This document shows, piece by piece, positions 2,736 through 8,297 of a stretch of DNA of 64,000 nucleotides. Made by a program: the position numbers and the translations under genes. The DNA comes from Candidatus Magasanikiibacteriota bacterium (GTDB lineage Bacteria > Patescibacteriota > Patescibacteriia > Magasanikbacterales > GWA2-37-8). The stretch's first letter is position 1, and the number at the start of each line of letters is the position of its first letter. The notes under the pieces are model-generated. The model was not told the DNA's origin. It ran no database searches and saw nothing but the letters and a program-made list of their open reading frames with translations. The stretch spans positions 2,513-66,512 of the forward strand of contig JBAYIZ010000005.1 in the NCBI GenBank assembly GCA_041665405.1, given 5' to 3'.

Positions 2736-3311
2736 TCAAATATTCTTTAAAATAATATTCAATACATTATCCCAATCCATCCGACTGGTATCAATAGAAA
2801 ATATTGGCATTGCTGATTCACTAAATAATTTTTTAAGATATTTCTGTTGTTCTATATAATAATTAACTCTCTCTTCAAGCGTTCCTACTTTCTTGTGTTT
2901 CCAAGTTGCACCTCGTTGTTTATCTGCCAATTCAATTCGGTTTGATATATAATCATCTTGCATTCTTAATAAAATTGTAATTGGGTCAAAACAATTCAGT
3001 ACCTCATTTTCTAGACCAGAAAAAATGTTTAACTTTGAATTAGTTCTAAAAGCATGAGTGATAAATAATCGTTCGACAATAATGTAGCTGGTTGAAATCT
3101 TTTTAATGTTTTCAATAACATTTTTTAGATACTCTACTGCTTTGAGAGGATCTCTGTTTTCAAACAAGGGAACAGTGGTTTCTTCTTCAGAAACAAAAGT
3201 GATCTGATGTTTTTCTTGAAGATGTGATATCAGGTTGGATATGGTGGTTGTTTTGCCAGATGTTGCTATACCTTCAAAAATGATAAGTTTTGGTTTTGAG
3301 ACATCTTTCAT
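2736..3311 (-). CDS. P-loop NTPase / nucleotide(nucleoside) kinase-like protein
   Basis: Walker A motif IIFEGIATSGKTT near the N-terminus; 191 aa; overlaps the upstream ORF by 4 nt (operon). Confidence 0.5.
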   Translation of the reverse strand: MKDVSKPKLIIFEGIATSGKTTTISNLISHLQEKHQITFVSEEETTVPLFENRDPLKAVEYLKNVIENIKKISTSYIIVERLFITHAFRTNSKLNIFSGLENEVLNCFDPITILLRMQDDYISNRIELADKQRGATWKHKKVGTLEERVNYYIEQQKYLKKLFSESAMPIFSIDTSRMDWDNVLNIILKNI

Positions 3312-3811
3312 AATAATAACTTTTGCACCTTTTCTTCAAAACTTTTGTAATGGTAATGCATTGGAAAAGGAATGACGACACCATTATTTAAAACATTAAA
3401 ACCGTCATCACATAAACGTTTTTCTAATAACTGACAAACTGTCTTTTTGGCCAGCATCAGATTGACTTTTTTGTCACCAATAATACCTTTTAAATCATCC
3501 ACAAAATTCGAATAATTTTTTAATATCAGTTCATCAGCCTCTTTGTCTGGTAATTTGTCTACTGGAATATAAATAGGATCAACTAAAAAATATCCGCTAT
3601 TGGCGAAACAAGTAAGACCGTCGTGTTTAGTGTTAAATTTTTTCCCAAACAAACATTTCATTAATGACCGAAACAGTAATTCACTTGGCCTACCATCTGG
3701 GTTGTAAAAATAACCACCACCCGTAGGAAGAGATTCAAAAATAAAGATCGTTTTAAGCGACTTTGGTAGATATTGATTGCGTAATTTTTTATAGGATGAC
3801 TCTGAAGTCAC
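3308..3811 (-). CDS. hypothetical protein, co-transcribed with the P-loop kinase
   Basis: 167-aa ORF whose stop overlaps the downstream start by ATGA. No recognised motif. Confidence 0.4.
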   Translation of the reverse strand: MTSESSYKKLRNQYLPKSLKTIFIFESLPTGGGYFYNPDGRPSELLFRSLMKCLFGKKFNTKHDGLTCFANSGYFLVDPIYIPVDKLPDKEADELILKNYSNFVDDLKGIIGDKKVNLMLAKKTVCQLLEKRLCDDGFNVLNNGVVIPFPMHYHYKSFEEKVQKLLL

Positions 3812-3835
3812 AAAATTATTTTTAAATAAATATAA

Positions 3836-4099
3836 TTATTTTACTTCCAATTCTTGCATTCTATCATTTAAAACAGAATCTAAATCTTTTATTCCCAATT
3901 GAGAAGCAAGCACGAACGCTCCATAAAAAACATTAGCAATTCGCAGTTCAATATCTTTGTTATTTTTTGAAGCAACCCAAAGTTTAGTCAGCGACTCTTG
4001 AGATCCCAATATACATTCTTCAATATTAATCGGACTATTCTGACGAATAAAATTATCTTGTTTTTGAATGATTTGCAAGTATGAAGTAAGGGTTGTCAT
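3836..4099 (-). CDS. MazG-like nucleotide pyrophosphohydrolase (small all-alpha NTP-PPase)
   Basis: The C-terminal ELRIANVFYGAFVLASQLGIKDLDSVLNDRMQELE matches the MazG/NTP-PPase helix pair (E..ADVL.YL..LA..LGIDLE). The track ORF starts at 4192, but the first 31 codons are AT-rich low-complexity sequence, so ATG 4099 is more plausible. Confidence 0.45.
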   Translation of the reverse strand: MTTLTSYLQIIQKQDNFIRQNSPINIEECILGSQESLTKLWVASKNNKDIELRIANVFYGAFVLASQLGIKDLDSVLNDRMQELEVK

Positions 4100-4219
4100 A
4101 AAATAATCGACATGAATATAATAAATCAAAGTAATATTATCAGATAATATATAAAAACAAAAGACCGCTACCAAGTGCTGATTTACAAACACACTAACAT
4201 ATTTAATAAAAAATGCAAC

Positions 4220-4293
4220 AAAAAAGACGCCTCTTTTAAAAGCGTCCTACATTGTGCAGCCGATCGGGTAAGGTAGCAAACTATTTTTGAGAT
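4220..4293. repeat. cassette-boundary direct repeat R2
   Basis: aaaaaagacgcctcttttaaaagcgtcc hairpin variant followed by tacattgtgcagccgatcgggtaaggtagcaaactatttttgag. Confidence 0.65.
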
Positions 4294-4297
4294 TATT

Positions 4298-5962
4298 TCA
4301 TCTATTATTCTGAGATATTCTTATGAAATTTTGTTTTAATAATTCATTTTTACTCATGTCTACTAATTCAGATAATGACGGATTTCCTTGATACAGAGTC
4401 CATGCATACAATGGTGTATATCCATTCCTCCTCATCCAACCAGAATGAAACTGGCCTCTAGTACGAGTAGGTAGCGATTGCCACTTAGAAAATGCCTCCT
4501 CTAATTCTTGCAAACTGAATTCAACTGAACGTTTCTGGTGCTCTCTCTGATCCTGTTTATAAAAATTCTTCTTCAAATTTTCGTCTTTACTCAAAACCAC
4601 TATATCCTCAATAGACAAACTCTTTTTCCTAGCCCATTCAACCAATCCTTTATACCCATTATGACTAAGCCAACCACGTGAAAATCCTTTCTTGTGATCT
4701 GACGTCCATTTTTTAAAAGCATTCTCTAATTCAGTTAAGGCGGATTCCATGTTTCGAATTATTCCTGGATGATACTCCTGTTTTATAAAACTATCTTTTA
4801 ATTCTTGATTATTACTGTTAACGACCAATTCTGTTAATTTTGGATTTTCACCCCTTTTTGTCCATGCATATAAATTTTCGTAACCATTTTTCCTTAACCA
4901 GGCAATACTAAAATTACCTCTTTCAATTTCTTGACACGTTTTATAAAGTTCAAATGCCTCTTCCAATTCAATGGTAGCGGAATACAAATCACGATCTTTG
5001 CCTTCATATGTTTTAAAACTATCTTTCAATTGTTGATTTTTGCTTTTCGCCACTAATTCTTCAATTGATAGATTAATTCTTTTGCCTTTTGAATCTTTCC
5101 TATATGTCCAAGACGTTAAAGCTATATGATTGATACTTAACCAACTAATATTAAAATCTCCTCTATTCTTTATGGGCAAAGCCAACCACTCCTGAAAAGC
5201 ATTCTCTAACTCTACCAAAGCAGTTTCAGGCGTTCTATTTTTCATCTCAGATATTTCTTTCGAAGATTCTCCAGTTTCAGTCGATTTGGATATTAATAAT
5301 CTAACAATTTCTTGTTTCCACTCATCCGATGATTTATTAAAAATTACCATTGAAACTTTGTCTGAACCCAAAGATTTCAATTGATTTTTTGTATACTCAC
5401 CATACTTTCTCCAATCCTCTTTTTCAACATCATGGACTACAAATGTAGCATTTCCTTCTTCGTTATTTACTAAAACTAACTTCTTTATTCCAGGAATTAC
5501 AAAAACTTTGTAGCTTAACCTCCTCATCATATTGGGTGAATTCACACCATCGTGTACCTCATATTTCAAATCTAGGTCACTGAGAATTTCAATAAGAAAT
5601 CTTGTTCTCGGTAAAATATCTTTCTCTTCTATACCAACTCCACTTCCAGGAATGATTTCCCCTTCATCAGGAGGTAGAATTGTCTCATTTTCTATCACAA
5701 TCAAATCTGGCATTAACAATGGATTCAATTCTTTTTTTACCCTTAATTCTTTTACAAAATTATTTACATCTAAATGCAGGACTGGAGCTTTATTTCGACC
5801 AACGTCAATAATACTGAGGTAATTTATGGCTCCTAACATTTCAGCTATTGTTCTTAGGCTACTATTTGGATTAGACCTAATGAGGGTAAAAATTCTTTGA
5901 CTAATTTCAAAAGATAAAGCCTCTTGAACTATCTCTGAATTTTGTTCATCGTATTGAGACAT
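4298..5962 (-). CDS. large hypothetical protein: N-terminal domain of unknown function plus five tandem ~48-aa C-terminal repeats (helicase-associated-domain-like)
   Basis: The repeats ELENAFQEW..G.FS..WL..NGY..L..W recur five times. ELE(N/E)AF...G.F..GWL resembles the HA-domain consensus. The N-terminal domain has a possible PD-(D/E)xK-like VVHDVEK. Confidence 0.5.
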   Translation of the reverse strand: MSQYDEQNSEIVQEALSFEISQRIFTLIRSNPNSSLRTIAEMLGAINYLSIIDVGRNKAPVLHLDVNNFVKELRVKKELNPLLMPDLIVIENETILPPDEGEIIPGSGVGIEEKDILPRTRFLIEILSDLDLKYEVHDGVNSPNMMRRLSYKVFVIPGIKKLVLVNNEEGNATFVVHDVEKEDWRKYGEYTKNQLKSLGSDKVSMVIFNKSSDEWKQEIVRLLISKSTETGESSKEISEMKNRTPETALVELENAFQEWLALPIKNRGDFNISWLSINHIALTSWTYRKDSKGKRINLSIEELVAKSKNQQLKDSFKTYEGKDRDLYSATIELEEAFELYKTCQEIERGNFSIAWLRKNGYENLYAWTKRGENPKLTELVVNSNNQELKDSFIKQEYHPGIIRNMESALTELENAFKKWTSDHKKGFSRGWLSHNGYKGLVEWARKKSLSIEDIVVLSKDENLKKNFYKQDQREHQKRSVEFSLQELEEAFSKWQSLPTRTRGQFHSGWMRRNGYTPLYAWTLYQGNPSLSELVDMSKNELLKQNFIRISQNNR

Positions 5963-6088
5963 TTTGATGAGGTTAAATATAGAAATATTATATCTGTTTT
6001 ATGTTTAATTGTCTATTTATAAAATAAATTAATGCGCAAAAAAACTACAATTTGAGTGGCAAACTCCATTTCAGCAGTTAATAGAGAT

Positions 6089-6164
6089 AAAAAAGACGCC
6101 TTTTGATAAAAGCGTCTTTACATGTGCAGCCGATCGATTAAGGTGGTAAACTATTTTTGAGAAT
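6089..6164. repeat. cassette-boundary direct repeat R3
   Basis: aaaaaagacgccttttgataaaagcgtctttacatgtgcagccgatcgattaaggtggtaaactatttttgagaat. Confidence 0.65.
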
Positions 6165-6175
6165 TTAAGATAATA

Positions 6176-7108
6176 TTATTTAATATCTTTGCGTTCCAAA
6201 ATATCAAACCCGTCTTTTACCGCATCACACAAAAAATTTTCCAACTGGCTATTGTCTTTTTTAGTTTGAGCTTTATATAAAAAAGTATAATATAAACGCT
6301 TCTGTTGTTGGTGGATAATCGCCGGAGCAAAATTTTCTTTCAATAACATAGCTGTCATAAGCAGACGGCCAACACGTCCATTGCCATCGGAAAATGGATG
6401 AACTTGTTCAAACTGTCTGTGAACATCGGCGGATAACGAAATAATATCACTGGTAGATTTTGAGGCTAAGATTATAATCTCTCCAACCAGTTTTGGCACA
6501 CTCATAAAATTAGCAGTCGCCAGATTCACTCCCAAAATTCTCACGCCATGTTGACGATACAAACCGGCATCAGATTGAATACCGTTCATCAAAATACTAT
6601 GCAATTTCAATACAAAGTTTTCATCAATTTTTTCTTTCTTAAGAATATGACTAAACAAATAATTTAAAGCAGTTTGATGATTCTTTGCTTCCATTTGTTC
6701 AGCCAAACTTTTATTTGGCAACGCTACATTATCAAAAATAACAGCCGCAGTGTCTGGTTCAGTCAAGGTACTACCCTCGATGCTATTACTATGGTAGGTC
6801 AGCTTTAAGATAAGCTGGTCGCGAATATCTGGGTTATTCAAAATCTCCGCTACAATATTTTTATGTTCAGAAGATTTTTTGTTTAGAAATTGTTTTTTGG
6901 CAATCAATTGATTGGATGGAATAACTTTCTGGCCAGTCATTTCCAAAAACAATTCATCGATAGCTATCTGCATTTTTGTTCTCGGGATAGACTTTTCATT
7001 CCACCAATTATTGAAAGCCACAAAAGACACGCCGAGTTTATCGGCCAATTTGGTCTGGGAAAGGCCAGACATCTTTTGAATAGTCTCAAGTTTTTGTTTA
7101 ATTGTCAT
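6176..7108 (-). CDS. Fic-family protein (AMPylase/Fic-Doc fold) with an N-terminal XRE-type HTH
   Basis: Canonical Fic motif HPFSDGNGRVGRLL. The N-terminus MSGLSQTKLADKLGVSFVAFNNWWNEK is an HTH_XRE. Confidence 0.8.
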   Translation of the reverse strand: MTIKQKLETIQKMSGLSQTKLADKLGVSFVAFNNWWNEKSIPRTKMQIAIDELFLEMTGQKVIPSNQLIAKKQFLNKKSSEHKNIVAEILNNPDIRDQLILKLTYHSNSIEGSTLTEPDTAAVIFDNVALPNKSLAEQMEAKNHQTALNYLFSHILKKEKIDENFVLKLHSILMNGIQSDAGLYRQHGVRILGVNLATANFMSVPKLVGEIIILASKSTSDIISLSADVHRQFEQVHPFSDGNGRVGRLLMTAMLLKENFAPAIIHQQQKRLYYTFLYKAQTKKDNSQLENFLCDAVKDGFDILERKDIK

Positions 7109-7170
7109 AATAATGTCATTATATCAAACTTTATAAAGTTTGTCAAATATTGGTATACTTTATAAAGTTA
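7109..7170 (-). promoter_or_regulatory. Fic promoter with a twice-repeated 14-bp palindrome (putative autoregulatory operator)
   Basis: On the minus strand: TTGACA-N17-TATAAT, then 9 nt to the ATG (near-leaderless). The perfect palindrome AACTTTATAAAGTT overlaps the spacer (7126-7143), and a second copy, ACTTTATAAAGT, is at 7157-7168. Confidence 0.5.
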
Positions 7171-7171
7171 T

Positions 7172-7247
7172 AAAAAAGACGCCTTTTGATAAAAGCGTCT
7201 TTATATGTGCAGCCGATCGGGTAAGGTGGCAAACTATTTTAGAGAAT
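7172..7247. repeat. cassette-boundary direct repeat R4
   Basis: aaaaaagacgccttttgataaaagcgtctttatatgtgcagccgatcgggtaaggtggcaaactattttagagaat. Confidence 0.65.
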
Positions 7248-7257
7248 ATTTAAAAAC

Positions 7258-7430
7258 AAAAAACCGCCCGTTGCCTAAATACAGAATTCAATTCTGAACT
7301 TAGGCAAGTGCGGGAGGTCGAGTGTCTGACCAATTCCCTTCCTTGTCTGACCTGGCGGTCATATGACATCCTTTCGGACGGAACGACTCTCAGCGTCGCT
7401 CTTCCCCACCGTATTTCGGAGGATGGGGTG
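7258..7430 (-). repeat. conserved ~175-nt GC-rich structured element, copy 2 (3' UTR of GC-rich ORF 7440..8114)
   Basis: Same hairpin series as copy 1. The differences fall mostly in loops: UUGACC vs CUGAGA in the second hairpin loop. Confidence 0.6.
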
Positions 7431-7439
7431 ATTGGTGGT

Positions 7440-8114: not shown

Positions 8115-8190
8115 GGGTTCTCTCCTCGTCAGATGATTTGACGGGTTAAAAATTATTATACATTCTAAAAAATCATTTGTCTATCAAAAT

Positions 8191-8225
8191 AAAAAAGACG
8201 CCTTTTGATAAAAGCGTCTTTATTG
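8191..8225. repeat. R5: the native copy of the repeat hairpin (tRNA terminator), abutting the tRNA 3' end
   Basis: aaaaaagacgccttttgataaaagcgtctttattgtgca runs directly into the tRNA acceptor stem. Confidence 0.65.
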
Positions 8226-8297
8226 TGCACCCATTAGGAGTCGAACCTAAATTTTCGGCTTCGCAGGCCAATGTCCTATCCATTGAACGATGGGTGC
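8226..8297 (-). tRNA. tRNA, hand-folded as tRNA-Arg (anticodon GCG); anticodon call tentative
   Basis: Reverse complement: GCACCCA-TC-GTTC-AATGGATA-GGAC-A-TTGGC-CTGCGAA-GCCGA-AAAT-TTAGG-TTCGACT-CCTAA-TGGGTGC-A. All four stems pair. U33 and A37 are present. No encoded CCA. Confidence 0.75.

Follow-up and report, generated by a model that had tools for sequence, protein, structure and literature searches.

The window analysed here is a stretch of 64,000 nucleotides (nt) from a Candidatus Magasanikiibacteriota bacterium (GenBank assembly GCA_041665405.1, contig JBAYIZ010000005.1, positions 2,513 to 66,512). It carries on its minus strand, as one cassette between direct repeats, a gene whose product of 554 amino acids (aa), called below the target, is the subject of this work. 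The protein is 100% identical to WCV83_01910, a hypothetical protein recorded at NCBI for a metagenome-assembled genome (MAG) of Candidatus Magasanikbacteria. It is probably cytoplasmic, and it is modular: a conserved N-terminal head is followed by a linker and by an array of four helical repeats, which we name type A (Table 1). From the promoter and terminators predicted around it, the gene would form an independent single-gene transcription unit. By the searches made, the target belongs neither to the HA (helicase-associated) proteins, nor to the PD-(D/E)xK nucleases, nor to a known defence family; it is a member of a large family in which the head is conserved and whole arrays are exchanged. 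Rather than being an HA-domain nuclease, it is probably tethered to DNA.

The type-A array and the conserved head

An earlier note, made from the sequence alone, had described the C-terminal part of the target as five repeats of ~48 aa spread over 260 aa and resembling HA domains. This part is indeed repetitive, and the motif quoted there, ELE(N/E)AF..W......G.F...WL..NGY..L..W, is present: a profile built solely from the repeats of other proteins, the target being left out, finds every unit by hmmsearch. The same search sets the boundaries of the units and corrects their number and size. There are four of them, in tandem from aa 244 to 554, with a period of 73-82 aa (225-237 nt), and the array measures 311 aa. 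The consensus of the type-A unit is TxESALxELEEAFxKWxxLPxxxRGxFNxxWLxxNGYxxLYxWxxxxxNxSxxxLVxxSxNxELKxxFxKQE. As the four units share only 34-41% pairwise identity, and as Tandem Repeats Finder (TRF) detects no tandem repeat in the DNA of the gene, the repeats of the target are old. An AlphaFold2 (AF2) model of two consecutive units, built on a 31-sequence alignment, displays five helices per unit with a predicted local distance difference test (pLDDT) value of 90.8 and a predicted TM-score (pTM) of 0.57, i.e. two confident domains whose mutual orientation is undefined. The five-helix units are thus well modelled, but Foldseek found for them no matching fold in the PDB.

The kinship of these repeats with HA domains did not survive the searches. 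Pfam returned no HA match (PF03457), neither for the whole target (E<=1) nor for 22 type-A units searched one by one (E<=10), and no other Pfam family matched the repeats; the same scan gives E values of ~1e-63 for the genuine HA arrays of two relatives, P0089 and P0102. When the type-A profile (single and double units) was aligned by hhalign with the 8 HA units of these two proteins, the probability was 0.1-0.2%. The Foldseek search with the two-unit model was equally negative for HA, the solved HA domain 2KTA being present in the library, and a unit of five helices is to be compared with the 64 positions of the Pfam HA model. Pfam models, profile-profile alignment, structure and unit size all speak against HA homology. 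The type-A profile had no match among PDB sequences either; run against a collection of 5.8 billion proteins, it turned up only P0153, a fragment of 91 aa. This fragment is an open reading frame (ORF) at 6001-6276 of locus L016, lying among short ORFs, with ~1.2 type-A units and no head; it may be what is left of a decayed family gene. As judged from these comparisons, the type-A unit would be a new type of repeat.

The head (aa 1-228) was modelled by AF2 with a pLDDT of 84 and a pTM of 0.81. The model comprises a segment resembling a helix-turn-helix (HTH) or winged helix (~aa 15-75), an alpha/beta core and a flexible Gly-rich loop (106-110). The HTH-like segment has the secondary structure H-H-beta-beta-H and is little conserved in sequence; it aligns weakly with SinR and PH1932, and scattered weak matches to HTH families are found in the first ~70 aa of several family members. 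Over the 152 best representatives of the head family, the residues conserved at 90% or more are A45, P85, P97, G106, R119, L127, Y134, G139, R147, Y151, E168, N171, T173 and K192, R147 and Y151 reaching 99% each. In the core, P97, G106, R119, Y134, G139, R147, Y151, E168, N171, T173 and K192 make up a family signature which the target possesses entirely.

The sequence VVHDVEK had been proposed as a possible PD-(D/E)xK-like segment. This is ruled out: D178, E180 and K181 are not conserved, H177 is the only residue of the segment conserved among the 11 closest relatives, and none reaches 80% in the 152 representatives. E168 is the sole acidic residue of the head conserved at 90% or more, which argues against a classical metal-dependent nuclease.

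The statement that the N-terminal part has no recognised match, on the other hand, stands. Pfam, NCBIfam, PHROGs and PADLOC gave nothing for the head beyond the weak HTH matches mentioned above; head profiles found no significant match among PDB sequences, and Foldseek none at E<=1e-3 in PDB and BFVD, nuclease folds included. The sole PDB-sequence match, with the N-terminus of TnpB (8h1j, E=0.84), was treated as due to chance. A resemblance to the KTSC domain recurs in the Foldseek results (TM ~0.45-0.5 over 60-80 columns) at E values of 0.2-1, hence not significant: it is a lead and not evidence. For both the head and the type-A repeat, sequence and profile comparison thus points to an absence of recognisable relatives in Pfam, NCBIfam, PHROGs, PADLOC and PDB, and no description of the protein family was found in the literature searched.

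The family, its arrays and its genomic contexts

A word-indexed search yielded ten homologues of the target, five of which share the N-terminal domain only. The family proved much larger when the head profile was run against 1.84 billion cluster representatives (clusters at 50% identity): 1020 clusters are found at E<=1e-3, 574 at E<=1e-10 and 156 at E<=1e-30, the target being the top match (E 4.9e-92). The head is nearly always N-terminal and is followed by 200-1000 further aa.

What follows the head differs widely from one protein to another. In the top 152 representatives, type-A arrays were counted in 15 proteins, with 2-8 units each; type-B arrays, which have a unit of 68-69 aa present in up to 15 copies (consensus APEGWMTNKALAKELGVDEKTVKRIAEKYRESHPEWFKEYLDKKGREREHYHPELVEIIKKEIEER), are found in 111; and the 26 proteins left have other tails, most of them with other repeats. 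Among the latter are genuine Pfam HA arrays, of 3 units in P0089 (E 2e-63) and 5 units in P0102 (E 1e-63), INT_rpt arrays in P0016, P0029 and P0149 (E 1e-13 to 1e-15), and an array resembling HNH_repeat, by a weak match, in P0034. At least two further unnamed repeat types stand behind family heads. Type A aligns with none of the others, i.e. type B, INT_rpt, the HNH_repeat-like units and two further types (hhalign probability <2% each). Type B gives weak signals of HTH or winged HTH (wHTH) domains, with HTH_29, MerR_1, KorB and WHD_BrxR, and with HTH proteins of the PDB at E 0.2-1. Across the family the number of copies in an array ranges from 1 to 15.

P0076 and P0072 are 77% identical over aa 1-264 and are unrelated from the first repeat onward, the former bearing type A and the latter type B. 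The same is seen with P0089 (HA) and P0114 (INT_rpt), whose heads are related and whose arrays differ. Because heads as close as 77% bear unrelated arrays, whole arrays must have been swapped repeatedly onto a conserved head; in the head tree, the carriers of type A are not monophyletic. On the sequences compared, the tail behaves as an exchangeable cassette, at least six unrelated small helical repeat types being plugged onto related heads.

The named sources of family members are Patescibacteria, also called the candidate phyla radiation (CPR), and the family appears confined to this group. This restriction rests on record labels, and it is provisional since five contigs from MAGs of the third-party annotation (TPA) section have labels, Gammaproteobacteria and Bdellovibrionales, that are unverifiable. 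These five belong to 15 GTDB loci of which nine are labelled Patescibacteria (Magasanik-, Moran-, Doudna- and Uhrbacteria, Saccharibacteria, and one just "Patescibacteria group") and one is unclassified.

With seven further contigs, the 15 GTDB loci provide ~22 genomic contexts, the genome scan having used a narrow peptide pattern. The neighbours of the relatives are mostly housekeeping genes: mur and fts genes, aminoacyl-tRNA synthetases, RNase J, FolD and thymidine kinase (TK). In three independent contigs the family gene comes immediately after ftsW-murG (L010 4419-5936, L012 7878-9731 and L030 4890-6650), and in the first two it stands directly before murC with short intergenic gaps, which suggests that it is co-transcribed there with the cell-wall genes. 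Synteny is conserved between L010 and L012, where the two family copies share 49% identity and the genes on either side 52-71%; this fits vertical inheritance. Other relatives lie near mur genes (L002, L003), between tilS-ftsH-murJ and lepA-gmk in oral metagenomes, or next to genes for RNase J, thymidine kinase, FolD or an FtsJ-like methyltransferase; some are linked to M23 peptidase genes. An all-vs-all comparison of the neighbours at 16 loci revealed no conserved partner gene. Two loci, L008 (5597-10067) and L011 (7989-11442), carry tandem pairs of paralogous family genes, all of type B with differing repeat numbers; one such pair sits in a complete Saccharibacteria chromosome of 844 kb.

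The association with defence suggested by the earlier note for the gene's surroundings is therefore found in a minority of places: among the ~22 contexts, defence-like neighbours occur only in the window, in L007, where a Fic gene is two genes away from the relative of the target, and in L015, where the family member adjoins a DUF2726 protein that matches Shedu-C weakly. Searches of 50,697 phage records, of 72,556 plasmids and of IMG/VR found no relative. The target itself matches 0 families of PADLOC-DB v2 at E<=1, and none of PHROG and NCBIfam.

The cassette array around the gene

The target gene is located in a variable stretch between tRNA-Arg/tRNA-Val and the tuf/S10 operon, which contains a Fic protein, a HicA toxin and several genes of unknown function. 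A direct repeat of 78 nt bounds cassettes of one or a few genes in this stretch, the target being one of these cassettes; its copies are at 802-879, 4217-4294, 6087-6164 and 7170-7247, and a core of 37 nt is found also at 8184-8220, right after tRNA-Arg. The single-gene cassette in a defence-flavoured array that had been described is thus real in this genome. The repeat is made up of a conserved part of 45 nt, containing CCGATCGG, then of an intrinsic terminator; its 37-nt core shows 100% identity between the two outermost copies. About 8 nt are common to the repeat and to tRNA-Arg (8225-8297, minus strand), at the 3' end of the latter. The annotation contains no integrase or recombinase within +-10 kb, and an exact-pattern scan of metagenomes for the repeat core gave only chance matches, in high-GC contigs.

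The neighbouring cassette encodes, at 6176-7108 on the minus strand, an HTH-Fic protein with the motif HPFSDGNGRVGR, which matches PDC-S04 of PADLOC (E 1e-44) and SoFic (4e-27). Farther away, an ORF resembling the HicA toxin (Pfam E 4e-6) overlaps an upstream ORF of 109 aa, the two being at 1364-1675 and 1596-1925 on the minus strand; the 109-aa ORF matches no family and could be a HicB-type partner. Directly downstream of the target (2736-4192, minus strand) are three tightly packed genes, for products of 118, 167 and 191 aa, the last one a P-loop protein with weak matches to dTMP kinase and VakA. The same three genes also follow the target on L021, an independent contig from another sample.

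This AT-rich genome contains in addition a GC-rich repeat of ~185 nt, with two copies 93% identical (1991-2172 and 7253-7433), each just downstream, on the minus strand, of a GC-rich ORF, and a remnant at 4142-4168. Folded as the minus-strand RNA, it reaches -75 kcal/mol (z = -5.1 relative to shuffled sequences) and ends in a terminator. Nothing in Rfam matches it; it is a candidate for a structured RNA or for the end of a mobile element.

Table 1. Position of the target gene, of its parts and of the flanking signals in the window.
Feature	Position	Strand	Basis or remark
Complete ORF, 554 aa and stop codon, ATG start	4298..5962	-	Belongs to a large family of Patescibacteria proteins, hitherto undescribed
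Conserved N-terminal head, aa 1-228	5279..5962	-	Alignment, AF2 model, family profile
HTH-like/winged-helix-like head segment, ~aa 15-75	5738..5920	-	Weak HTH alignments, secondary structure
Conserved alpha/beta core of the head, aa 85-228	5279..5710	-	Conservation over 152 representatives
Linker, aa 229-243	5234..5278	-	Between N-domain envelope and first repeat envelope
Type-A repeat 1, aa 244-325	4988..5233	-	hmmsearch i-E 2.9e-24
Type-A repeat 2, aa 326-403	4754..4987	-	hmmsearch i-E 2.2e-24
Type-A repeat 3, aa 404-478	4529..4753	-	hmmsearch i-E 4.3e-21; AF2 five-helix unit, pLDDT ~91
Type-A repeat 4, aa 479-554	4301..4528	-	hmmsearch i-E 2.8e-24; AF2 five-helix unit
Promoter-like TAGACA-17-TATAAT, 25 nt upstream of the target ATG	5987..6015	-	11/12 consensus matches; consensus match only
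Intrinsic-terminator-like hairpin and T run downstream of the target ORF, inside the 78-nt repeat	4224..4248	-	
Intrinsic-terminator-like hairpin upstream of the target, closing the neighbouring gene	6119-6092	-	
78-nt cassette-bounding direct repeat, downstream copy	4217..4294	-	
78-nt cassette-bounding direct repeat, upstream copy, closing the neighbouring Fic cassette	6087..6164	-	

Possible roles and comparison with known systems

Since the slot filled by type-A units in the target holds genuine HA or INT_rpt repeats in relatives, the array is, by analogy, very probably in the functional class of these repeats, that of modules which bind nucleic acid. It is mildly basic (isoelectric point, pI, of 9.1 and net charge of +6) compared with an acidic head (pI 5.2), and its units are modelled as independent; from this we infer that it would be a multivalent tether binding DNA. 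In such a protein, the four independently folded five-helix units of the tail would be arranged as beads on a string and contact nucleic acid, most likely DNA, at several points. The head, with its HTH-like segment and its core bearing the near-invariant constellation R119/R147/Y151/E168/N171/T173/K192, would supply the constant function of the family, as its effector or partner-binding part, and the array would hold this activity or partner contact at the DNA; evolution has exchanged the tail wholesale and kept the head. A cellular role is favoured because the contexts are chromosomal, core-like and partly syntenic, and because the family is absent from mobile-element collections. The reading that we prefer, and to which we give about an even chance, is that of a cellular, chromosome-associated modular protein tethered to DNA, perhaps with a link to division or to the growth of the envelope; we prefer it to that of an anti-phage nuclease.

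Several observations weigh against it. The target itself does not sit in a core neighbourhood: it belongs to a repeat-bounded cassette array together with Fic/PDC-S04 and HicA. The fast exchange of arrays and the changes in copy number would also be expected of a protein engaged in conflicts, e.g. in defence. The net charge of the type-A array is only ~+1 per unit, and the type-A unit has neither detectable kinship to HA, INT_rpt or type B nor a PDB fold match. Finally, the survey of contexts is small and its genome scan narrow.

The first two of these points lead to the alternative of a single-gene defence effector, in the style of type IV restriction: the head would be an enzyme of a novel kind with foreign DNA as its substrate, the array its specificity or recognition module, and the swapping the mark of an arms race. 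The self-contained cassette beside Fic/PDC-S04 and the HicA toxin, the Fic gene of L007 and the DUF2726 protein of L015, the exchange of arrays, of 1 to 15 copies, between heads 77% identical and the tandem paralogues of L008 and L011 all go in this direction. So do the known architectures joining a nuclease to HA or another C-terminal reader, as in END and SauUSI-type enzymes according to PMC12191111. We nevertheless consider this alternative unlikely: PADLOC, PHROG and NCBIfam do not recognise the protein, its head has a single conserved acidic residue, no recognisable metal-nuclease motif and no match to a nuclease fold, most relatives are in operon-like housekeeping contexts with conserved synteny, and none is found in the phage, plasmid and viral collections. 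Of the nucleic-acid-targeting effector put forward in the earlier note, the first half gains from the HA and INT_rpt repeats that occupy the slot in relatives, but the defence half is weakly supported.

A bolder version, which we hold for doubtful, would make of the family a retargetable DNA-acting system specific to CPR. The head would be a catalytic or sensing domain of new fold, with the R/R/Y/E/N/T/K residues as its site; it would be redirected by swapping arrays, type A being in this case a new DNA-binding fold, and would serve in conflicts, either as single-protein immunity or, these bacteria being episymbionts, as an effector directed at the DNA of the host or of competitors.

The arrays might also be scaffolds binding protein, RNA or a ligand and recruiting partners to the head, for instance in envelope or division complexes. 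The lack of similarity between type-A units and any DNA-binding fold, their near-neutral charge (-2 for repeat 2 of the target, and a mean of +1.3 per unit in the type-A family) and the linkage of relatives to ftsW-murG and M23 peptidase genes are consistent with such scaffolds. However, the slot holds in relatives HA, INT_rpt and wHTH-like repeats, modules otherwise borne by DNA enzymes, and the head itself opens with an HTH-like segment, so that we see only a slim chance for this role. As to five HA repeats fused to a PD-(D/E)xK nuclease with VVHDVEK as its motif, a model to which aromatic and Trp residues spaced along short helices lend a loose likeness, and for which the true HA arrays of P0089 and P0102 could be invoked, it is essentially excluded by the four repeats of 73-82 aa, by the failure of HMM, profile-profile and structural searches to find HA, by the variability of the VVHDVEK residues and by the absence of a nuclease fold match.

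CPR bacteria represent a large share of bacterial diversity, and most of their lineage-specific proteins are uncharacterised. One such family is defined here, with at least 1000 clusters at 50% identity. It shows with unusual clarity how modules are exchanged: one conserved head accepts repeats of at least six unrelated kinds, HA and INT_rpt among them, and some of the exchanges are between heads 77% identical. As these repeats appear interchangeable as tethers, they give a functional clue to the poorly understood HA/INT_rpt class. The preferred reading, that of a DNA-tethered cellular protein, would make of the family a candidate CPR-specific factor associated with the chromosome or with division, given the recurrent position of the gene behind ftsW-murG; if the protein were instead a defence effector, it would represent a new single-protein defence architecture.

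Helicases, integrases and homing endonucleases are the enzymes in which HA, INT_rpt and HNH_repeat serve as accessory repeats. Like the target, HA proteins (PF03457; 2KTA, from Bacteroides vulgatus BVU_0683) have short all-helical units in tandem, C-terminal on a larger protein, and in P0089 and P0102 the HA arrays occupy exactly the position of the target's array; on the other hand the HA unit (64 positions in Pfam) is shorter than the 73-82 aa and five predicted helices of type A, and the head of the target is not a helicase. INT_rpt (PF14882) and HNH_repeat (PF18780, whose match is weak) are also small helical modules in tandem, and relatives carry them where the target carries type A, which shows that this position can take up accessory repeats of the kind usual in DNA enzymes; they have no sequence kinship to the type-A unit.

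Tandem-repeat DNA binders are known in the TAL effectors, whose units are of 33-35 aa. They share with the array of the target a tandem succession of similar helical units whose number varies, which suggests a modular, additive binding. By contrast with TAL effectors, the type-A units are of ~75 aa and are predicted to be separate domains that do not build a superhelix (pTM 0.57), and no secretion signal is evident in the target sequence. At the level of the gene, an integron cassette would be bounded by recombination sites beside an integron integrase; the target gene has 78-nt direct repeats on either side, and the annotation shows no integrase or recombinase over +-10 kb.

A parallel in logic is with single-polypeptide nucleases, namely the END nucleases, SauUSI and BfiI (PMC12191111), in which a constant N-terminal module is likewise joined to an exchangeable C-terminal module for DNA recognition. 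That paper reports HA among the C-terminal domains, and cites a nuclear magnetic resonance (NMR) study of the HA domain (PF03457) as indicating DNA binding. The target differs from these enzymes by a head without phospholipase D (PLD), PD-(D/E)xK or other recognisable nuclease signature, and by family contexts that are mostly housekeeping, with no match in the defence database. A constant head combined with accessory nucleic-acid-binding repeats is a kind of architecture already known; the head and type-A domains that compose it here have no recognisable relatives.

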